A stretch of 32,000 bases of DNA, from assembly GCA_048882505.1 (NCBI GenBank), contig JBHLRO010000023.1:1-32000 (forward strand), in the 5' to 3' direction. The notes under the pieces are model-generated. The model ran no database searches and was not told the origin of the DNA. It worked only from the letters and a program-made list of their open reading frames with translations. Shown in pieces: positions 1 through 32,000 of the stretch (positions within the stretch are counted from its first letter, which is position 1; every line of letters starts with the position of its first letter). Both the position numbers and the translations under genes were made by a program. Origin of the DNA: Candidatus Thorarchaeota archaeon (GTDB lineage Archaea; Asgardarchaeota; Heimdallarchaeia; Hodarchaeales; Hodarchaeaceae).

Positions 1-285
1 TGTAGTGAGGGCTGACGCTATGATATCGCAGTCAACGAAACAAGGCAAGCTATGAGTATGATCGCTGTGTAGATGAGTTAGTGCTACATATCTTATATCA
101 TTCCCGAAAATCTCCCTTGTAATTCTTCTTATTGCCCTTGCTTCATTGATGTTCCTTCCACAATCAATCATTAAGCTACTAGAATCCAAATTTAGGACTG
201 CGATATTTGCGTGTCCTGGAAAGTACAAGATTTTCTCTGATAGTTGCGTAAAATCTGGATCCTCGATATTATCCGTTAGAATCAC
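1..285 (-). CDS. MBL-fold metallo-hydrolase (N-terminal part; runs off the left edge)
   Basis: Manual translation of the minus strand from GTG at 285: VILTDNIEDPDFTQLSEKILYFPGHANIAVLNLDSSSLMIDCGRNINEARAIRRITREIFGNDIRYVALTHLHSDHTHSLPCFVDCDIIASALTT. It has the MBL motifs 'IDCG' and HxHxDH (THLHSDH). The frame is open to base 1. The exact start codon is uncertain. Confidence 0.85.
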   Translation of the reverse strand, partial: MILTDNIEDPDFTQLSEKILYFPGHANIAVLNLDSSSLMIDCGRNINEARAIRRITREIFGNDIRYVALTHLHSDHTHSLPCFVDCDIIASALTT

Positions 286-310
286 CTCAGAAATAGATAG
301 AAATAATCCC

Positions 311-778
311 TTAGACTTCAAAACCTTCGCAGTGTTCGCACCCTTGAAGATTCTCCATGTCCATTTTGGCCCGATAAGCCTCAACCGCTGACTGCCCTGA
401 CTTAAGATGATTTATTTCTTTATCCAAATTGGTTGGTTGCATTACTGCGAGCCACCCCTGGTTATAAGGGGACCGGTTTAACAAATCGGCCTTCTCCAAG
501 ATTATCTCATTCGTATCGATGATGGTGCCAGATATGGGCGATTTGATTGGGCCCACCCACTTGTTACTCTCTATTAAGGTGATGGGGTCACCTTTTTTTA
601 ATACGACTCCAATTTGCTTGGGAGTTGCGTGCAGTACCGTTCCAGCCAGTGTTTGCCCTATATCTGTAATCCCGATAGTAACTGTTCCATTCACATTCTT
701 GCGAAGCCAGGTATCATCAGTCACGTTATAATATAGCTGACTGGGTAAAACACAATTGTGAATCTCTGCAAAAGACAC
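311..778 (-). CDS. GcvH-family lipoate-binding protein, LbpA-like subtype
   Basis: GcvH-type motifs TIGITD, SPISGTI and 'LLNRSPYNQGWL'. The lipoyl-lysine context is ESNKWVGP (LbpA-like ES-x-KWVGP rather than the GcvH ESVKA). There is an N-terminal Cys (HNCVLP) and a C-terminal GCEHC. GTG start. Confidence 0.85.
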   Translation of the reverse strand: MSFAEIHNCVLPSQLYYNVTDDTWLRKNVNGTVTIGITDIGQTLAGTVLHATPKQIGVVLKKGDPITLIESNKWVGPIKSPISGTIIDTNEIILEKADLLNRSPYNQGWLAVMQPTNLDKEINHLKSGQSAVEAYRAKMDMENLQGCEHCEGFEV

Positions 779-1027
779 TTTAATTCTACTCTGTTACCTT
801 ATATTACTTAGCTGGCTTGAAACGCTATTCGAAATAAATAGACTTTTCTCAGTGCACCATCCTTGACATGTAAAAGCACTTCTAATCCCATATCCTTGGG
901 TTTACCCAAAAGCGATTTATTCTACCATAATAACTTTATTCCATTATCGTTCTTACTCGAACAAGTCCCTTTTTAACCTAGTCATCTTCCCGTTTCTAAC
1001 TCTACATTAAATAGGAAAGTATGGCAC

Positions 1028-2131
1028 ATGACGGAAGTTTGGGGATTAGTCCAATTAAATGAGATTGCTTCACTTGAAACACAAACCGTGTGGCATGCAG
1101 CAGCGTTGACCAGACAGGAAACAAGATATGATAACATCTTGTTGATCGATTGGCCCAATCGGCCATTTGTTAGTGTGGGTTATCATCAGGATCCAAAAAG
1201 AGAAGTTGATTTAGCTGCCTGCGAACAAAGGGGATATGAGGTTTATCGCCGTGCGTGTGGCGGGGGCCAAGTTTTGCTGAACGGAGATCAGATCTTCTAT
1301 CACGCAATCACAAATCCTCAAAATCCCAAACTCAAAGGACGTACAATAGACTTTTACGAGAAATTGCTTCAACCAGTGGTTGCAACGTATCGGAATTTTG
1401 GCGTGGAAGCACAGTTCGCGCCCGTTAATGATATTGTTGCTGAAGGGAAGAAAATATCAGGAAATGGTGCTGCCACTTTAGGAGACTCTCGTATATTGAC
1501 AGGGAATTTTATCCTCTCTTTTCCTTCATCAGAGATGGCACAAGTTATGAGTGTACCCGATGAAAAATTCAGAGACAAGGTCGCAAAATCTCTGGAGGAT
1601 CGTGTAGGTAGCTTTGATTCTATACTAGGGAAAATTCCCGATAGAGAGAAGCTTATCGCTTCATATTTGGAAAATTTTCAATCCTATCTTGATGTTGAAT
1701 TCGAGAGAACTACATTACCTCAACCTACAAGAAAAAAGATGGCAGAACTAGATGTAATGTATGGTACGGAAGAATGGAAATTCGCAATAACTGGCCGTTC
1801 CTCATCGCTACGTGCCGTGAAAATAAAAGGAGGAATGTTTATATCAGAATCGTTGGTCAAAACGGCAGGTGGGCTAATCAAAGGCGTTTATGTTACAGAA
1901 AACAAAGTGATTGCTTATGAACCAAGTTTATCTGGTGATATTACCATAGAGCCTATGAACGGACTATCTTTAATTGAAAAAGATTTGAAAGGAACGTTGG
2001 TAAAGGCGGAGGAGCTCAAGAATGTAATCACGGAAACTACAAAGTCTTTTGACATGCCTGGAGTCACTGTGGATGATTTTGTTGATTTGACAATGAAAGC
2101 GGCGTTTTCTCATAAAGAAGCACGTGTTTGA
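1028..2131 (+). CDS. Lipoate:protein ligase (LplA family; catalytic domain plus C-terminal accessory domain, sLpl(AB)-like)
   Basis: VSVGYHQD...EVDL, RRACGGGQV, catalytic Lys in KKISGNGA, C-terminal 'KTAGGLIK' accessory domain. Divergently transcribed from the lipoyl carrier gene. Confidence 0.9.
   Translation: MTEVWGLVQLNEIASLETQTVWHAAALTRQETRYDNILLIDWPNRPFVSVGYHQDPKREVDLAACEQRGYEVYRRACGGGQVLLNGDQIFYHAITNPQNPKLKGRTIDFYEKLLQPVVATYRNFGVEAQFAPVNDIVAEGKKISGNGAATLGDSRILTGNFILSFPSSEMAQVMSVPDEKFRDKVAKSLEDRVGSFDSILGKIPDREKLIASYLENFQSYLDVEFERTTLPQPTRKKMAELDVMYGTEEWKFAITGRSSSLRAVKIKGGMFISESLVKTAGGLIKGVYVTENKVIAYEPSLSGDITIEPMNGLSLIEKDLKGTLVKAEELKNVITETTKSFDMPGVTVDDFVDLTMKAAFSHKEARV
2101..2131 (+). repeat. 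Imperfect direct repeat, copy 1 (last 10 codons of the ligase gene)
   Basis: GGCGTTTTCTCATAAAGAAGCACGTGTTTGA; 26/31 identical to 5213-5243. Confidence 0.8.
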
Positions 2132-2525
2132 TAGTTTCTGAGTTTCTATGGGCAATCAATTACTCAAAGTGCGATTCGGGGATGAACAAATAATGCACTT
2201 TAATCACATATAAACCTTTATTGGAAGCTGCAAACGAACTAGCCAAATTTCATGAAAAGAAGAGGTCAGTGATTAAGACTCCGTAGTAAGAATTCTCTCA
2301 GTAAGGATAACTAAAAGAAAAAAATGCGTAAAAGAATATCACATCGGGGAAAAAATTATCCCAAAAGTGGTTGTATTCAGATCGAAGCCTCAAAATAAAA
2401 AAAAAACAAAGCAACGGGATTACTTTCAAGTGAAACAGAGACAACATTAAAAATCAGAGTGAATAGAGCACCCATCAGGGCTAATACTTTATTAGCATAA
2501 TCTCGAATTAAGGGAGTCCTCGCCA

Positions 2526-2708
2526 CTAGATGGACCATCCTTCTTCCTCAAGAGGAATATTATCTTCATGTCGTAGATGAGAGACATCATTCATATAATT
2601 AATCATTTTTAGTAGAACATCAGTTACTAGTAGATCACGACCCTCTAATAGGTCTAAATTGGTATCATTGCGGAAATTCCCTACTTTGATTTTTATTATG
2701 TCCAACAT
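2526..2708 (-). CDS. Small hypothetical protein (~60 aa from ATG 2708; the ORF track starts it at TTG 2747)
   Basis: Only ORF over 60 aa in the 700-bp gap. It is co-oriented with and downstream of the surface-protein gene. No recognisable motif. Confidence 0.35.
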   Translation of the reverse strand: MLDIIKIKVGNFRNDTNLDLLEGRDLLVTDVLLKMINYMNDVSHLRHEDNIPLEEEGWSI

Positions 2709-2830
2709 AAGGTTTTTTAACCTTGGAGGTCTATTTTCTTTCGGCAAGTGGGTTTTTTTCTTGGTCTTCTCTCAAGTTCTATACCTTCGGGTGTGGAGAC
2801 CCGCTTTCATTTTCACCATCAATCATTAAA

Positions 2831-5089
2831 TTAAGATCTCAGTTGTTTTCGCTTGTAAACAATATAGGTACTTAAGAAGATTATCATAGCATAAAGTCCT
2901 GGGAATGCCCCAGATTCTGCATTAGTGGTTGTTCTTCCAGTACTGGACTCTGGTTCATTGGAGGTAGTTATGGTAGTGGAAGTCGTAGGAAGAGTCGTAA
3001 AATGGTTCGACGTGGTAATATCTTGAACTTTAATTATAGTGACTGTAACTGAGTCACTTACTTCTTTGCCAGACAGCTCATAAACGGTACAGGTGTAGTT
3101 GTAGAGACCGACTGGGAGATGGTCTACACCTATTGTGATGGAATTGCCATCCCAAGGTCCTCCTGCGACCCAAGTTCCATCACGATAAACCTGAAAACTA
3201 GCTGGGTCTGAACTTACTGGATACCAAGCAATATTATGTCCTAAGGATCCATAAATGTAGGTTACATCAGCAGGTTGATTAATAATATCAATAAGAATGC
3301 TTCTAGTTGCTGAATACCGTGTGTATGGATTAATCTCATTATCCATATCAATAGCTGATATTCTCCAGTACCAAGTACCCGGAGACAAATCATTTTGTAA
3401 AGTAAAAGAGGAAGCGGGTTCATCTATCCATATAGTAAATAAATCCGACGAATTAAACGTAGAAGAGGTATCGAGATGTAAATAATAGCTGCTCGCGTCT
3501 GGGAGATTCTCCCATTCAAGAGTAGGACGGTTGTTAAATGTACTATATCCGTCATCTGGTGATAGAAGATATGGAGGTTCAATATAAATGTAGCATTCAA
3601 AAGTAAGAGCGCCAATAATAGGGCTGCCTTCACCATCGGTGCTTCTTAATATCGCTTTCCAACGTAATTGTGATCCTAGAAGGGTGAATTGATGTGCTAA
3701 CCCTCCAGCTAGGTTAGCTTGTTCCCAATGAACACCCGCATCAGGAGAAAAATAGAATTCAACTGTTGTGTTTTCTTCAAGGAGGATGGAAAATACAGAG
3801 GAAGTAAGGTCTACCAGATAGAAAAACGCTGAACCGAGAGTCGAAACAATAATTGTAGATTGAGCGACAGCAACTGATTCATAATGGACTGCATCAAATA
3901 CCTCTAACGTTCTTCCACAAATTAAAATATAATCATCATGAGGATAATCGGGCAACCTATTATCCTTAAAAATAGAATAGAAATCACTCAGGATAGAAGT
4001 AGAGCTAAGGAGAACGGGATCTGAGGGATTATGCACATCAAACACCTGTAAGCCCCCCAAACCCCCATAACTATAAGCTATATACGCCAAGTTATCCTCA
4101 ACCCAGATTGCATGCGGGTTTGGAGAAGTAGTAACTATGGTTATTGGAAGAGGATTCGAAGGGGTAGCCACATCAAACACCTGTAAGCTGTGATTAATAT
4201 CAACGAAATAAGCAAAATCATGCTCGATAGATACAGCAATAGGTTTCCACCCCGTAGTATAGTTTACGACCAGATCGATGTTGGTGGGATCACTGATATC
4301 TAGAATTGAGAAGCCATTATATCCATCTGGTAAGTAGAGGTAATTCCCAGAAATGAACATTTCATTATCAAAAGATAATGTGATCATAGGAACTGGAATT
4401 TCATATATTGAGGATACTGATGGGGAGAGAGGGTCAGTGATGTTCATTGACGTAACTGCATAGGCTACGAGCTGAAAACCTGAATCTAAAATATAATCAA
4501 GTACATATATCCAATTCTCATCCCCTGAAATAACCATATCACCCATAAGAGTGACATGTGTGGAATTAGGATGTTTAGCAAGTGAACCTAATATTACTGG
4601 ATTAATGGGGTCAATCACATTTAGGATTATAAAATAACTGGAAAGACGCGTAATGTCTGGATAATAATTCGTTAAATACAAATACTCACTCCCAGCGACA
4701 ACATCAACGCAATTATTCAAAGATAGTTGGTTCTTTATTTGCGGAATCTTGGGATCGCTTATATCTAATATTTCCAGGCCAAAATTTTCTTCAGCAATAT
4801 AAGCATAATGATCCTTAATCGTAAAACCATTGGAAAAAGAATCAAGATCCACTGACCCTATTCTTGGGAACGTACGAGGTAAAGAGACCATTCCAGAGCC
4901 TTGTTCCCATCCCCACACAGTAGTATTTGCGAAATCCATATATGAGGTGGTCGTGAAATCTTCATCGAAAACCCATGAGTATCCACTCGCTTTCTGGATG
5001 TTTAACGGAGAGCTGGAGGCCCCCAAGAGGATAAGAAGTGAAAGCATAATCGGAATACTAATGAATTTGGTTGACTCGATAGGTTTCAT
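2831..5089 (-). CDS. Secreted/surface LVIVD-repeat beta-propeller protein with FN3/Ig-like domains, Ser/Thr-rich linker and C-terminal membrane anchor
   Basis: N-terminal signal peptide. Repeats GLEILDISDP, GFSILDISDP, SLQVFDVATP and GLQVFDVHNP. FN3-like segment 'PTLEW...GTWYWRISAID'. Ig-like module 'PADVTY..G..G.NI.W...GLYNYTCTV'. Thr/Ser run, then FPG + TM helix + basic tail KRKQLRS. Confidence 0.85.
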   Translation of the reverse strand: MKPIESTKFISIPIMLSLLILLGASSSPLNIQKASGYSWVFDEDFTTTSYMDFANTTVWGWEQGSGMVSLPRTFPRIGSVDLDSFSNGFTIKDHYAYIAEENFGLEILDISDPKIPQIKNQLSLNNCVDVVAGSEYLYLTNYYPDITRLSSYFIILNVIDPINPVILGSLAKHPNSTHVTLMGDMVISGDENWIYVLDYILDSGFQLVAYAVTSMNITDPLSPSVSSIYEIPVPMITLSFDNEMFISGNYLYLPDGYNGFSILDISDPTNIDLVVNYTTGWKPIAVSIEHDFAYFVDINHSLQVFDVATPSNPLPITIVTTSPNPHAIWVEDNLAYIAYSYGGLGGLQVFDVHNPSDPVLLSSTSILSDFYSIFKDNRLPDYPHDDYILICGRTLEVFDAVHYESVAVAQSTIIVSTLGSAFFYLVDLTSSVFSILLEENTTVEFYFSPDAGVHWEQANLAGGLAHQFTLLGSQLRWKAILRSTDGEGSPIIGALTFECYIYIEPPYLLSPDDGYSTFNNRPTLEWENLPDASSYYLHLDTSSTFNSSDLFTIWIDEPASSFTLQNDLSPGTWYWRISAIDMDNEINPYTRYSATRSILIDIINQPADVTYIYGSLGHNIAWYPVSSDPASFQVYRDGTWVAGGPWDGNSITIGVDHLPVGLYNYTCTVYELSGKEVSDSVTVTIIKVQDITTSNHFTTLPTTSTTITTSNEPESSTGRTTTNAESGAFPGLYAMIIFLSTYIVYKRKQLRS
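4034..4188. repeat. Exact 20-bp intragenic direct repeat (4034-4053 and 4169-4188)
   Basis: CACATCAAACACCTGTAAGC occurs twice, 135 nt (45 codons) apart. Both copies encode LQVFDV of adjacent LVIVD repeats. Confidence 0.85.
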
Positions 5090-5141
5090 TCTTCTACATA
5101 CAGCATTTAATTTTTGGTATTTTCTTTGATAGGCAATAGCC

Positions 5142-5158
5142 TATTTAAAGGTTTCTCG
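5142..5158 (-). promoter_or_regulatory. Putative archaeal BRE/TATA promoter for the LVIVD gene
   Basis: The minus strand reads CGAGAAAC-C-TTTAAATA, with the TATA element ~55 nt upstream of ATG 5089. Confidence 0.45.
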
Positions 5159-5212
5159 TTGTTCTGAGTCTTTTTTTGGTTCGATCTCAGGACTTCATGC
5201 GTTTTATGTAAT

Positions 5213-5243
5213 GGCGTCTTCACACAAAGAAGCTCGTGTTTAA
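5213..5243 (+). repeat. Imperfect direct repeat, copy 2 (intergenic remnant of the ligase 3' end)
   Basis: GGCGTCTTCACACAAAGAAGCTCGTGTTTAA. In the ligase frame it reads ASSHKEARV-stop versus AFSHKEARV-stop. Confidence 0.8.
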
Positions 5244-5421
5244 ACACCTTAAGGTCGGCTGGACCCAGTATTTGATTGTAGCTTTGATGACGACCTAACC
5301 TGAGATTCCACAGTCTTCTCTAAGTCTTTCCTTCTGCATTCTAGCTTCGGACGATTAAAGTTATAGCCACTTCCTACACTCGGAATTGCTCAATAGAGAT
5401 TATTTTCTCGATGCAACGACA

Positions 5422-6393
5422 ATGGCTAATATTCTGAGCAGACTTTTAAAATCAGAAAATCCTTCAATCGTGTATAAAACCCACGCATATCTGTTGGGAA
5501 AGGATCCACGTTCATCAGAATTGCAATCACTCCAAAATGAAATCAAATCATCAAGTTTTGTCCAACATCTTCTCTCAGAACGTGATTCTGAGGGTAAAAT
5601 CCCCTATCACCCATATAAAAAGTGGTTTGGGGCCCATTGGGTCTTATCTGTGATTGCAGACCTTGATTATCCAGAGGGGGATGAATCTCTCTTTCCTCTA
5701 AAAGAGCAAGTCTTCCAGTGGTTACTTTCTGAAAAGTATGAAAAGAAATATGCCCGCTTAATCAATGGTCGATATCGGAAATGTGCTTCAATGGAGGGAA
5801 ACGCCCTGTACTATCTTTTGAAATTGGGGTTGGAAGATGAAAGGGTTGAAATTCTGGTAGATAGGTTGAGACGATGGCAATGGGAGGATGGTGGTTGGAA
5901 TTGCGACAAAAATCCAGCAGCTCAGAATTCATCCTTTATGGAATCTCTTCTTCCGTTACGTGGTTTGAATCTTTATTCTCACCTCAAATCTGACGAGTTA
6001 TCAAGAGCTATGGCTAGGCGGGCGTCAGACATTTTCTTCAAACGTCACCTGTACAAGAGGCAACAAGATGGTCACATCATGCGAAAAGAGTTTGCCCAAC
6101 TATACTATCCGTACTACTGGCACTATAATATCCTTGTTGGCCTAAAAGTATTGGCAGAGGGAGGATTCTTACCTGATGAGAGATGTAAGGATGCCCTAGA
6201 CCTATTGCAATCAAAACAGCTCCCCGACGGAGGATTTCCTGCTGAAAGAAAGTATTATCAAGTTACTGACAATCTTAACAGGAGCGGAAGATCATTGGTA
6301 AATTGGGGAGGAACTGGCAAGAAACGTATGAATGAATTCATAACGGTAGATGCGCTTTATGTCTTGAAAAACGCAGGTTACCAGGCCAAATAA
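5422..6393 (+). CDS. Prenyltransferase/squalene-cyclase-like alpha-alpha barrel protein of unknown function
   Basis: QW-type repeats QWEDGGWNC and QLPDGGF. The likely start is ATG 5422; the ORF track uses TTG 5386. Confidence 0.65.
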   Translation: MANILSRLLKSENPSIVYKTHAYLLGKDPRSSELQSLQNEIKSSSFVQHLLSERDSEGKIPYHPYKKWFGAHWVLSVIADLDYPEGDESLFPLKEQVFQWLLSEKYEKKYARLINGRYRKCASMEGNALYYLLKLGLEDERVEILVDRLRRWQWEDGGWNCDKNPAAQNSSFMESLLPLRGLNLYSHLKSDELSRAMARRASDIFFKRHLYKRQQDGHIMRKEFAQLYYPYYWHYNILVGLKVLAEGGFLPDERCKDALDLLQSKQLPDGGFPAERKYYQVTDNLNRSGRSLVNWGGTGKKRMNEFITVDALYVLKNAGYQAK

Positions 6394-6457
6394 TAGTAAA
6401 AGTTTTGGTCTTCCCGTTATAATAGTGTATTTAGCTCATCTTTCTGATAATAAACCG

Positions 6458-6895
6458 CTAGACCAGCCATAAACTCTTCCAAGTAATTCCTTCGGTCAAG
6501 ATCATAGGGATTAAGATAAGTGCAGCTGTTATCGTATCTGTCATTGCTAGCAGTAAATATCCAGTTTCAATCCCAATCGTCAACCACGATAAAACAACAA
6601 GAAAAACGAAATCCAAACGTACAAAGCACGACCCGACTCCAATGAACGCAAGTCTTTTGACATCTTGAGAAGAAACCAATAGCAAATATCCTACCGCAAT
6701 AAGGAACAGACCAACAACGTGGCTATAGATTTCGGGATTCGGTTTGTTTATGCTCAATATAGGGGCGGTAAGATCAGGGAATAGGAGACTTACGCCAAGA
6801 ACTAAGTCGTAGATCCCACCGATTATAATTCCAATTCTCAAATAAGTGTCTTGATCAAATCTTTTCAATTCTAGTACCTCTGTTAGCCTTTTCAT
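6458..6895 (-). CDS. Small integral membrane protein (~4 TM helices)
   Basis: 145 aa with four hydrophobic segments; ATG start. Confidence 0.7.
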   Translation of the reverse strand: MKRLTEVLELKRFDQDTYLRIGIIIGGIYDLVLGVSLLFPDLTAPILSINKPNPEIYSHVVGLFLIAVGYLLLVSSQDVKRLAFIGVGSCFVRLDFVFLVVLSWLTIGIETGYLLLAMTDTITAALILIPMILTEGITWKSLWLV

Positions 6896-6999
6896 CTATA
6901 CTGAATGTCTTGGTGGTCAAACCATCACAATTTATAAGTCTTTGGACACCGTTTAAACGAAAATGGAAGTTGTCGGAAATTTCCCTCCTATGCGTTACC

Positions 7000-7818
7000 C
7001 TAGGGGGTATCTGTAGGATCCCAACTTGAAATATACCGAATGTTAAGCGTGTCCAATGCTTCCATATCTTCATTCGAGATAACAAAATCGAAAACTTCTG
7101 AGTTCTCTCGGATTCTTTTTGGATTCCCAGATTTGGGAATAACAATTACATCATGTTGGAGACCCCACCGAATCAGCAGCTGCGCGGGTGTTTTGGAATA
7201 TTTTGCTGCTATCGAACCCAATCGGGGATCATGAAGTCGATGCCCTTTTGTCAACGGGCTATACGCTTCTACCTCGATCGAATGATGTTTACAATACGAG
7301 AGGAGATCTTTCCTATAATGAAAGGGATGAAATTCAATCTGGTTGACAGTGGGACGGATGACACAATCCTGAAAAAGTTCCTGTAAGTGGTGAATCATAT
7401 AATTACTTACTCCTATTGCTTGGATCTGATTGGTCTCGTATAAGGATTCGAGTGCCCTCCAAGATTCCTTTCGTTTATCAGTCACTGGCCAATGAATCAG
7501 ATAAAGGTCGATATAGTCCAATTGCAGGAGTTGAAGACTTCTATCGAACGCTTTCAAAGTTTTCCGGAATCCGTGATCGCTATTCCATAATTTGGTTGTA
7601 ACAAAGAATTCCTCTCTCGGGATCTCGGATGTTCGAATCGCTTGACCGATTTCGCGCTCATTCCCGTAAAACGTGGCAGTATCAAGCAGTCGATAGCCGT
7701 TTTGGAACGCTTCATGCAACGCCGAAACTGCTGCTCTTCCTCTCAGGTTATACGTGCCCAACCCAAATATTGGCATTTTAATCTGATTGTTTAGAGTGAC
7801 GGTAGTCTTGATATCCAT
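7000..7818 (-). CDS. Aldo/keto reductase (AKR5/2,5-DKG reductase-like)
   Basis: FGLGTY, DTATFYGNE (catalytic Asp/Tyr), TKLW, DLYLIHWP, IGVSNY, IPKS. Confidence 0.95.
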   Translation of the reverse strand: MDIKTTVTLNNQIKMPIFGLGTYNLRGRAAVSALHEAFQNGYRLLDTATFYGNEREIGQAIRTSEIPREEFFVTTKLWNSDHGFRKTLKAFDRSLQLLQLDYIDLYLIHWPVTDKRKESWRALESLYETNQIQAIGVSNYMIHHLQELFQDCVIRPTVNQIEFHPFHYRKDLLSYCKHHSIEVEAYSPLTKGHRLHDPRLGSIAAKYSKTPAQLLIRWGLQHDVIVIPKSGNPKRIRENSEVFDFVISNEDMEALDTLNIRYISSWDPTDTP

Positions 7819-8049
7819 GCTTAATCAACCGTCTCAAGGAAGTTGAAAATTATTTACGTCCTCATTTAGTAGGATTCGTTATCAGAAAGTTTTATTCCGT
7901 CTCCAGGACAAAGCCTTCCTTCATTGAAATTAAATCAATGCCTTAAATCCTTAAAGATAGTTCGTAATGGCAATTCTTTCTCCCTTCTTAGAACGCTTTA
8001 TCCAATTTTATCCAAATTTCTTTGCTTTATACCCAAGAGGTGTCTCTGA

Positions 8050-31027: not shown

Positions 31028-31033
31028 AGGTGA
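31028..31033 (+). promoter_or_regulatory. Shine-Dalgarno-like site
   Basis: AGGTGA ends 5 nt before ATG 31039. Confidence 0.55.
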
Positions 31034-31038
31034 AGAAG

Positions 31039-32000
31039 ATGAAACATGTATTAGTTTTAGGAGCAGGAATGGTAGCTGGCCCACATATTCGCTACCTTTT
31101 AGACCATGGATTACACGTTACAGTTGCGAGTCGAACATTGACAAAAGCGGAAGCTCTGGTAGGTGATCATCCCAATGGGGTTGCTAAAAAGTTTGATATC
31201 ACGAAGGATGCTGATAAATTAGACCCCCTAGTTCAGGAATGCGATCTCGCTGTATCTCTTTTGCCTTATATTTATCATGTACAGGTAGCAAAAGTTTGTC
31301 TCAAATATAAGAAACACATGGTAACCACCTCATATGTATCGCCCGAGATGAAAGCATTAGATTCTGAAGCCCGTGCGGCAGGGGTGATATTATTGAATGA
31401 GATCGGAGTCGATCCAGGTATCGATCATATGAGTGCTCAACAAATTATTGACCGGGTTCACGATCAAGGGGGGAAAATCCTCTCATTCAAATCCTATTGT
31501 GGCGGTCTGCCCGCTCCCGAGGCCAATACGAATCCGTGGGGTTATAAATTGAGCTGGAGTCCTCGCGGGGTTATCCTCGCAGGTAGAAATGCCGCAAAGT
31601 ACAAAGAGGACAGCAACATTGTTGATATTCCTGGAGAGGATCTCTTTGACCAGAATTTTCCCTATCCTGTTGATGGAGTTGAAGGGGAGTATGAAGCATA
31701 TCCTAATAGAGATTCTACACCATATCTAAACATCTATCAGATTCCAGAGGCCGAAACGATTTTTCGAGGTACAATTCGAAACGCGGGTTGGTCGAGAGCC
31801 CTTAAGAAGGTGGCTGAAATCGGGTACATGGATATAGAGGAACGAGAATATCCCCCTGGATTCACTTATGCTGATTTGACTGCACGCCTGCTAGGTAGTC
31901 AGGATCTTTCACAGGTAAAGTCAGATTTTATTCAATATTTCGATCTAGATGAAGAAGATGATATAGTAAAACGATTTGAATGGATGGGTCTGTTCAATGG
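31039..32000 (+). CDS. Saccharopine dehydrogenase (glutamate-forming; SDH domain of AASS/Lys9-like), truncated by the right edge
   Basis: Manual translation gives MKHVLVLGAGMVAGP...VSLLPYIYH...TTSYVSPEM...LNEIGVDPGIDHMSA...SYCGGLPAPEANTNPWGYKLSWSPRG. The frame is open to the window end. Confidence 0.95.
   Translation, partial: MKHVLVLGAGMVAGPHIRYLLDHGLHVTVASRTLTKAEALVGDHPNGVAKKFDITKDADKLDPLVQECDLAVSLLPYIYHVQVAKVCLKYKKHMVTTSYVSPEMKALDSEARAAGVILLNEIGVDPGIDHMSAQQIIDRVHDQGGKILSFKSYCGGLPAPEANTNPWGYKLSWSPRGVILAGRNAAKYKEDSNIVDIPGEDLFDQNFPYPVDGVEGEYEAYPNRDSTPYLNIYQIPEAETIFRGTIRNAGWSRALKKVAEIGYMDIEEREYPPGFTYADLTARLLGSQDLSQVKSDFIQYFDLDEEDDIVKRFEWMGLFN

Follow-up and report, generated by a model that had tools for sequence, protein, structure and literature searches.

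A repeated lipoate ligase gene end brackets a recently gained surface-protein block in an Asgard archaeal genome

The stretch of DNA analysed here, called the window throughout, comprises positions 1–32,000 of contig JBHLRO010000023.1, which is contig C23 of an Asgard archaeal metagenome-assembled genome (MAG) of 83 contigs and 4.3 Mb that is 94.6% complete (genome G000); coordinates refer to the window. Its subject is a lipoate-protein ligase gene whose last 31 nucleotides (nt) recur further downstream. The ligase ends in the first copy of this tail (copy 1), and the second copy (copy 2) stands alone ahead of a resident gene of no named family, hereafter gene X. Between the copies lie 3,081 nt of DNA, the cargo, with a gene for an LVIVD-repeat surface protein, a small putative open reading frame (ORF) and a partial RNA-like element (Table 1). 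For annotation, the ligase is an intact gene and the second tail is not a gene. A preliminary description of the locus had seen in it either an old integration or recombination scar or an exchangeable slot for surface proteins, with the gene end as its attachment (att) site.

The main comparison genome is G016, the closest species representative, with which G000 shares a baseline identity of approximately 86%, a figure measured only over window positions 9–7955. A contig from a Joint Genome Institute (JGI) metagenome, L049, whose ligase is 76% identical to that of the window, represents a third taxon, and three distant lineages (L059, L060 and L061) have ligases that are 56–58% identical. Three public metagenome runs were also compared with the window, namely X1, the probable source run, X2, from a different study, and X3. 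The homologues of the ligase are named Heimdallarchaeota, Kariarchaeaceae and Hodarchaeales, and an Arf-like GTPase is encoded within the window.

Table 1. Features of the ligase locus and of loci with the same architecture elsewhere in the genome. Positions without a contig label are those of the window.
Feature	Position	Strand	Description
GcvH/LbpA-type lipoyl carrier gene	311–778	minus	Pfam GCV_H, 109.5 bits; resident flank, 80–92% identical to G016
Lipoate-protein ligase (LplA/sLpl(AB)-like)	1028–2131	plus	367 aa, intact; Pfam LplA-B_cat, 117 bits; mosaic
Probable left (homologous) crossover	1253–1276	plus	codons of the family-invariant ACGGGQV motif
Repeat copy 1, functional ligase tail (TGA stop)	2101–2131	plus	donor type; continuous with the donor-type ligase 3′ part
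Cargo	2132–5212		3,081 nt; absent from G016 and the JGI relative; GC 0.382
Small ORF	2526–2708	minus	60 aa from ATG, 73 aa from an upstream TTG; putative gene, no Pfam match
Partial, degenerate copy of an RNA-like element	2752–2806	minus	holds a 25-nt core identical in other species of the genus
LVIVD-repeat surface protein gene	2831–5089	minus	752 aa; Pfam LVIVD
Candidate archaeal TATA box, TTTAAATA	5142–5149	minus	53–60 nt upstream of the LVIVD ATG
Repeat copy 2, displaced resident ligase tail (relic)	5213–5243	plus	G016/JGI homology restarts at its first base
Gene X	5422–6393	plus	324 aa, no Pfam family; resident, 86% identical to G016; ancestral ligase neighbour
Saccharopine dehydrogenase (SDH) locus	31030–32000, on to G000:C23:43129 and G000:C70:1–2585
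Aldehyde dehydrogenase (ALDH) locus, L087	G000:C2:360202–363650		last ~105 nt recur 1.9 kb downstream, 85% identity, in frame
Helicase locus, L088	G000:C2:115799–119923		archaeal DEAD/Hel308-type; 60-nt tail repeated 1.9 kb downstream, 90% identity
SMC-like locus, L089	G000:C7:1848–12347		four relics of the last 84 nt, at 5661, 8106, 9569 and 12267

Aligned without gaps, the two copies of the repeat, whose starts lie 3,112 nt apart, are identical at 26 of 31 bases, with mismatches at repeat positions 6, 10, 13, 22 and 30 and longest identical runs of 8, 7 and 5 nt. Copy 1 reads AFSHKEARV-stop in the frame of the ligase and copy 2 reads ASSHKEARV-stop; four of the five differences are silent (TCT/TCA, CAT/CAC, GCA/GCT and TGA/TAA), the fifth changes Phe to Ser, and the stop codon is the last triplet of both copies, all as the preliminary description had reported. 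No similarity extends beyond the repeat, either to the left of the copies or to the right of their stops. A look for further copies, which the same description had proposed, found none besides these two in the 4.3-Mb genome, either at up to three mismatches or by short-word BLAST. Such matches are also not common at this base composition, where the opposite result would have counted as a refutation of the preliminary description: a direct match of at least 26 of 31 occurred in none of 25 second-order Markov shuffles of the window, and the real window holds two, the other being formed by the LVIVD gene’s own internal repeats. Decisively, the repeat begins and ends at exactly those bases where the alignment with G016 places the insertion breakpoints, which would not be expected of a chance match.

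In G016 the ligase is followed directly by the homologue of gene X, an empty site. A base-level alignment shows that the homology of G016 to the window runs through the ligase stop at 2131, ceases, and restarts exactly at 5213; no DNA match of G016 to 2132–5212 was found. The JGI contig has an empty site too, and in L059, L060 and L061 the ligase is followed at once by a gene of the size of gene X. Because these three more distant lineages also show the adjacency of ligase and X, the empty site is ancestral and the cargo is an insertion. Of all genomes and contigs searched, only the genome of the window and near-identical contigs of runs X1–X3 proved to carry the cassette. One X1 contig, at a depth of 26, covers 1–5650 without a difference. 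Run X2 holds both forms. The filled form is represented by one contig across the left junction (1939–2393), again without a difference, and by three pieces inside the cargo, and the empty form by one contig of 561 nt that joins 2100 to 5213. Of the letters in this empty-site contig, 51 lie left of the joint and 5 (GGCGT) fit either side; the 510 bases on the right (5213–5722) differ from the window at one position.

Filled and empty contigs at strain-level identity indicate that the gain is recent and still polymorphic, and the LVIVD gene is a recent, strain-level acquisition. Copy 2 matches the functional ligase tail of G016 at 29 of 31 bases, with both differences synonymous, and that of the JGI contig at 28 of 31; copy 1 is the outlier, differing from the G016 tail at 5 and from the JGI tail at 6 of the 31 bases. 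Differences from the G016 tail that are so few and synonymous are what one would expect if the relic had been a working gene end until a very short time ago. At the right junction, the last two bases of the cargo and the first of copy 2 make an ATG (5211–5213), which opens an 11-codon frame, MASSHKEARV-stop, ahead of gene X. The preliminary description had predicted empty-site alleles, and these exist in G016, in the JGI contig, in the X2 contig and in the distant lineages; its account of an insertion into the 3′ end of the ligase, which supplied a replacement tail and left the resident tail behind as a direct repeat, is supported by them. Its dating of the scar as old is contradicted, both by the empty-site contig of X2, with 1 difference in 510 bases, and by the intact frame of a relic that differs from G016 by two synonymous changes.

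At the distance of neighbouring species, the empty site is documented by no more than one close genome and one short contig, and the source is a MAG in 83 contigs, so that one might think of an ancestral cassette deleted in the relatives, of a chance match or of an assembly chimera. Deletion is opposed by the adjacency of ligase and X in five lineages at three depths, and, had the relic dated back to the species splits, it would not agree with the functional tails of relatives at 29 of 31 bases with synonymous changes only. Chance is opposed by the shuffles, none of which gave a comparable match. As for a chimera, the X1 contig, which was assembled separately, spans the whole arrangement and the X2 contig its left junction, and the copies have no 31-mer in common that could mislead a de Bruijn assembler. 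We regard all three explanations, even taken together, as barely credible.

The ligase gene is a mosaic. Over 1028–1273 it is of resident type, with 95.5% identity between G000 and G016 and a third-position identity of 0.90; over 1274–2131 these values fall to 69.6% and 0.42, and this part is termed donor type. Informative sites were counted for the three taxa G000, G016 and JGI, with the first count supporting the grouping of G000 with G016 and the third that of G016 with JGI. They number 58/5/8 in the 5′ part of the ligase, 58/81/134 in its 3′ part and 148/73/35 in gene X, and G000 accordingly groups with G016 in the 5′ part and in gene X and is the outgroup to G016 and JGI in the 3′ part. 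The two-breakpoint maximum chi-square is 179, as opposed to a permutation maximum of 25. Differences between G000 and G016 number 11 in the 240 nt up to 1267 and are dense from 1276, which places the switch within the codons of the ACGGGQV motif, the kind of locally conserved stretch in which recombination between diverged sequences is expected to resolve. Donor-type sequence starts approximately 830 nt upstream of copy 1, within the ligase.

The composition of this tract resembles that of the cargo. The GC content at third codon positions (GC3) is 0.322 in the 3′ part of the ligase and 0.327 in the LVIVD gene, as opposed to 0.413 in the 5′ part of the ligase, 0.389 in gene X and 0.432 in the aldo-keto reductase gene; the resident flanks range from 0.389 to 0.474, the 3′ part of the G016 ligase is at 0.413, and the genome mean is 0.378 (standard deviation 0.036). 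The tetranucleotide composition of the cargo is unremarkable (85th percentile). Since the donor-type tract abuts the cargo and has the same low GC3, we infer that the two came together, in a single event.

The best reading that we can give, in which our confidence is about evenly balanced, is that the repeat at the ligase is not an att site but a scar, left when DNA of a related, distinct Heimdall-group archaeon was recently imported without an integrase, in one piece whose left end went in by homology and whose right end was joined illegitimately; the observation from which the preliminary description started is itself confirmed. The donor would have carried an orthologous ligase gene followed by the LVIVD gene. 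A single donor piece, roughly window 1270–5212, would have replaced resident DNA (~1270–2100), with its left end entering by homologous recombination inside the ligase, at the ACGGGQV codons, and its right end, which had no homologous partner, joined illegitimately 31 nt before the resident stop. The ligase would now end in the donor 3′ part, including copy 1, and the last 31 nt of the resident gene, never replaced, would persist as copy 2, a dead tail ahead of gene X. Candidates for the enzymology are homology-facilitated illegitimate recombination (HFIR) and break-induced copying with a template switch back to the chromosome. The donor tract begins in a conserved anchor gene and is contiguous with the cargo, and at the far junction, which appears to lack homology, resident DNA resumes abruptly at 5212/5213. 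Under this import reading, the repeat would end at the stop codon because the synteny of donor and recipient ends there, and the silent differences are the divergence of two orthologous tails under coding constraint in separate lineages, not decay after a duplication. A Campbell-type single crossover within the 31-nt tail was also considered, and was rejected because the identity is too short and too low and because the donor sequence upstream would be left unexplained.

The mosaic and the insertion could instead stem from two events, in which an older homologous replacement made the ligase mosaic and a piece of 3,112 nt later entered the tail separately. Such a piece would consist of a 26-nt replacement tail with its stop, the 3,081-nt cargo and a 5-nt GGCGT overlap, and would have entered either with the help of a recombinase supplied in trans or by recombination of an illegitimate or short-homology kind. 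The empty-site contig of X2 lends itself to this history, as its 51 left letters are placed at 2050–2100 of the window ligase, where, by de Bruijn logic, a single difference could suffice; the maximum chi-square tract, moreover, extends past copy 2 to approximately 5438, and the first 60 nt after copy 2 do not look like G016. This history demands that a 31-nt sequence imitating the tail in register should lie right at the border of the insert, although nothing is proposed that would put it there, and it leaves as coincidence that a donor-type tract abuts the cargo and has the same low GC3. At the SDH and helicase loci, described below, the mosaic 3′ parts likewise abut the cargo. We consider two separate events rather unlikely, but keep them in view.

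Another source for the whole arrangement would be a different lineage in which tail, cargo and tail had already formed, and from which they arrived ready-made by two-sided homologous recombination, with crossovers at approximately 1270 and 5300–5440. Identity to G016 is indeed low on both sides of the cargo (1304–2131 and 5213–5412), and the functional tail and relic of the helicase gene likewise group against G016. However, the empty-site contig has the same 5213–5722, at 1 difference in 510, and this DNA is hence resident with or without the cargo; the SDH relic is of resident type from its first base; and the idea merely shifts the origin of the duplication elsewhere. We find it improbable.

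The same architecture recurs at other loci of the genome. A self-BLAST of G000 returned gene ends repeated 0.8–12 kb downstream in non-coding DNA, and at the SDH, ALDH and helicase loci G016 shows the empty site. The SDH locus begins in the window and runs beyond it, contig C70 continuing C23 through the assembler’s 77-nt overlap; an exact 31-mer at the contig end is the SDH repeat, truncated there by the assembler. The SDH gene (31030–32370) is of resident type to approximately 31547 and of donor type thereafter (65–83% identical to G016). Its cargo, 10.7 kb that are absent from G016, holds a 1,396-aa ORF with beta-propeller and immunoglobulin (Ig)-like domains, a 933-aa ORF, a rhodanese and a GC-rich patch. 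The second SDH copy is partial, starts abruptly at nucleotide 296 of the gene and is 93–100% identical to G016 from its first base. Over their first 222 nt the two SDH copies agree at 221 positions, and because this duplication differs at one base the event is very recent. At SDH, a Campbell-type crossover is possible if the incoming circle already held resident-type sequence.

At the ALDH locus, the cargo is a single gene for a LAGLIDADG homing endonuclease (LAGLIDADG_2, 54 bits) with several helix-turn-helix domains; this is a free-standing homing endonuclease that brings along a spare gene end. The ligase cargo holds no homing endonuclease gene. The helicase gene is mosaic over its final ~850 nt and has as its cargo a gene, on the opposite strand, for a 492-aa PMT_2-like membrane protein. 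The SMC-like locus is a stacked, variable slot, where three of the four relics have one left edge and all have open frames. Unrelated cargo lies between the relics (a methyltransferase, YdjM and a NosD/beta-helix protein), and in G016 the locus has relic tails of its own, with cargo that differs in part. Open frames persist in the relics across these loci, and synonymous changes predominate among the differences at the ALDH and SMC-like loci. Eight analogous junctions elsewhere in the genome have no common motif, and across all loci, the ligase included, the junctions lie 31 to 1,046 nt before the stop, the exception in position being the three SMC-like relics with their one left edge. Self-BLAST loci on contigs C31, C5, C6 and C53 are not counted as confirmed cases; for C31 and C5, the comparisons with G016 are complex or one-sided.

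An in-frame replacement tail is the classic outcome of integration at a gene 3′ end. Filled and empty forms of the ligase locus occur in one metagenome, with the empty joint at the very left edge of the repeat, and the SMC-like locus, with four stacked tails of which three have one left edge, holds different cargo in G016. All this would suit a site-specific integrative cassette that carries a mimic of the tail as its attP, uses the tail as att site and relies on an integrase encoded elsewhere, in an exchangeable slot. A Pfam scan of the cargo finds LVIVD alone and no recombinase, which bears out the preliminary description in its statement that the block has no integrase. Recombinase and transposase domains are likewise absent from 27 ORFs of the 32-kb window (all 24 of at least 110 aa and three shorter ones; the rest of the genome was not searched). 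The copies, at 26 of 31, have at most 8 identical bases in a row and so no identical core, donor sequence begins ~830 nt outside the repeat and is not confined between the copies, and the genome holds no third copy. Repeat lengths of 31 to 1,046 nt without a common junction motif are unlike the work of one recombinase. Among the contigs matched to the window no circular junction was found, although contigs drop rare forms. The att-site reading of the preliminary description thus does not hold at the ligase, and an integrative cassette seems to us a poor prospect. Other marks of integration were sought as well: the window has no tRNA and no Rfam hit that could serve as a known-RNA att site, and there are no convincing terminal inverted repeats or transposon-like target duplications at the ends of the cargo. 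One 15-nt inverted match, between 2088–2102 and 2801–2815, was judged to be chance.

A bolder idea is a dedicated, integrase-free exchange of cassettes at the 3′ ends of conserved genes in this Asgard group, in which the tail would be the recombination site and cassettes would loop out, re-enter and stack into arrays. If so, the filled and empty ligase forms in one metagenome would be two states of the slot. The relic pattern of the SMC-like locus, with three relics sharing one left edge, fits a site-preferring process or one of looping out and re-entry, and for this reason we keep a small share of belief for a dedicated slot, which otherwise looks doubtful. The preliminary description’s notion of a slot for surface proteins is too narrow, as at other loci the cargo ranges from a homing endonuclease and a glycosyltransferase-like protein to a methyltransferase, among others; its exchangeable slot does fit the SMC-like locus.

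Several observations weigh against the import reading proposed above. The 51 left letters of the X2 empty-site contig were matched to the window ligase at a 90% threshold, and if they prove to agree with it at every base, the movement of the cassette would have been separate from that of the ligase tract. Searches with the partial X protein of this contig gave no exact match and, among shorter proteins, none above 74% identity. Immediately beyond copy 2, ~60 nt have informative sites of 4/8/13; since the empty-site contig has the same sequence, these are best seen as resident DNA with fast intergenic divergence. In the helicase case, functional tail and relic resemble each other more than either resembles G016 (15 sites versus 6 and 7), and at the SMC-like locus it is the relics, three of them with one left edge, and not the functional tail that are divergent. 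No one simple mechanism fits every locus. A donor genome that carries ligase and LVIVD gene side by side was not found by metagenome, DNA or protein searches: alignment of the ligase to metagenomes gave only two incomplete contigs, at 62–68%, and the DNA of 400 genomes of the phylum gave no match to the cargo except one weak hit of 219 nt. The only close LVIVD homologue, on JGI contig L050, has another upstream neighbour, of which neither G000 nor G016 has a homologue, and that contig ends 21 nt past the stop.

Among known systems, the closest mechanism to the import proposed here is HFIR, and the closest genomic pattern is the displacement of 3′ ends in rearrangement hot spot (Rhs), contact-dependent inhibition (CDI) and type VI secretion system (T6SS) loci. 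In the HFIR of transformable bacteria, one end of the foreign DNA is anchored by homology, the other is joined illegitimately, and no mobility genes take part (PMC5361080, PMC3240628; original work by de Vries & Wackernagel 2002, Prudhomme et al. 2002 and Meier & Wackernagel 2003, as cited in PMC5361080). As in HFIR, the donor tract starts within the ligase, the right switch is abrupt and a piece of the recipient gene is left over. In the accounts cited, HFIR is shown experimentally only in bacteria and with small inserts, whereas the present case is a genome comparison of an uncultured Asgard archaeon with inserts of 1.8–10.7 kb and a donor that is ~30% diverged in the replaced tract. The duplication of 222 nt of recipient DNA in the SDH event is, moreover, not something that simple HFIR acting on a single chromosome copy would produce.

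In Rhs, CDI and T6SS effector–immunity loci, C-terminal displacement produces arrays of orphan 3′ ends (Jackson et al. 2009, Kirchberger et al. 2017, PMC5361080). There, as here, the conserved 5′ part of a gene gains a new 3′ end together with cargo and the old end is pushed downstream, and repeated events stack relics, as at the SMC-like locus with its four relic tails. Those loci, however, are polymorphic toxin loci under diversifying selection, in which the displaced piece is a functional module, whereas the anchors here are metabolic or housekeeping genes (ligase, SDH, ALDH and helicase), the peptide encoded by the new tail is almost unchanged, and the cargo has no relation to the gene that anchors it. 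A third relative is insertion with long target duplication, in which an integrase-free insert is flanked by direct repeats of more than 30 bp, often over a gene 3′ end (Nobusato et al. 2000; Furuta et al. 2010, PMC2853133). Here too, 31-bp repeats both align to one target in the empty genome and mobility genes are absent. The repeats of those insertions are near-identical, however (for example 44/46 and 47/47), their cargo is a restriction–modification system and no archaeal case was retained (PMC2853133), whereas the ligase copies agree at 26/31 and copy 1 is of donor type. Only the SDH event, at 221/222, strictly satisfies the definition.

Likeness to elements that integrate with an enzyme of their own goes less far. 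The prophage-like elements e14 and phage 21 integrate in the 3′ end of the icd gene of Escherichia coli and supply a replacement end; each brings its own integrase gene, recombination takes place at a defined core of identical sequence, and the foreign DNA is confined between the att sites. At the ligase, as at icd, the gene stays intact through a substitute tail with mostly silent differences and the displaced tail stays as a repeat, but integrase, identical core and confinement between att sites all fail. Described Asgard elements, such as HeimV/HeimM and aloposons, insert at tRNA sites, with mobility or replication genes of their own (PMC8813620), and further Asgard mobile elements have been described from Atabeyarchaeia (PMC11529989). 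The cassette has in common with them the host group and the horizontal acquisition of blocks that include very large surface-type proteins; unlike them, it sits in the end of a protein gene without mobility or replication genes.

A scar of this kind is therefore already known, and what is new is its occurrence in an Asgard archaeon, where several loci show it and one of the events is still polymorphic in nature. The uptake of foreign genes by Asgard archaea bears on models of the origin of eukaryotes. The ligase and at least three like loci (SDH, helicase and ALDH) in one genome point to another route of gene gain, in which blocks of 1.8–10.7 kb, often with surface-protein genes, would enter without an integrase through recombination anchored in an ordinary conserved gene, which is left mosaic, with a dead gene end behind the block. 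Relic tails are easily searched, and they give the direction and rough age of each gain.

The principal cargo gene at the ligase is assigned to the LVIVD family (PF08309) at 81.8 bits, with a gathering cut-off of 20.2. Read by eye, its protein has an N-terminal hydrophobic segment, a putative signal or transmembrane segment, and a C terminus in which a linker rich in Thr and Ser leads into a PGL-hydrophobic-KRK anchor; these features suggest an archaeal surface protein held in place by its anchor. Its nearest homologue, P0122, at a different locus on L050, is 76% identical in protein and 82% in DNA (2831–5089 compared with L050:1804–4746). The window protein is without ~228 aa, two Ig-like repeats, that are present in P0122; this difference in length indicates that the number of repeat domains varies between LVIVD alleles. 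The candidate TATA box upstream of the gene suggests that the cargo may bring its own promoter. A bacterial promoter logic, with a sigma-70 promoter and a Shine–Dalgarno site, was dropped, as the homologues prove an Asgard origin.

On the resident side of the insertion, a gene X of ~310–345 aa follows this type of ligase in all lineages examined (the window, L004, L049, L059, L060 and L061), and in distant relatives the pair adjoins TusA, DsrE and Hdr/ETF-like genes. From this gene order, X appears to be a conserved, unnamed partner of the sLpl(AB)-type ligase. Further downstream, in the aldo-keto reductase region (6613–7995), contigs of X2 and X3 are only ~92% identical to the window and have variants in common, which points to a second related population that co-occurs in the two studies.

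At the C31 locus (L090), a stretch at G000:C31:19206–22057 (3207–6058 of L090) is 96–97% identical to G016, above the baseline of ~86%. Next to it is a RibD_C gene with a 173-nt tail that recurs 3.5 kb downstream; the stretch looks like a recent exchange between the species of G000 and G016.

The RNA-like element between the small ORF and the LVIVD gene matched no Rfam family. Intergenic copies of its 25-nt core, AGAACTTGAGAGAAGACCAAGAAAA, show 100% identity across several species of the genus, with sites also at G000:C1:170014–170038 and at loci L062–L067. The full unit of ~95 nt has a G-rich 5′ part, an 11-bp closing stem with compensatory changes and an inner hairpin. It is likely to be an undescribed small RNA, of which the window holds a partial copy.

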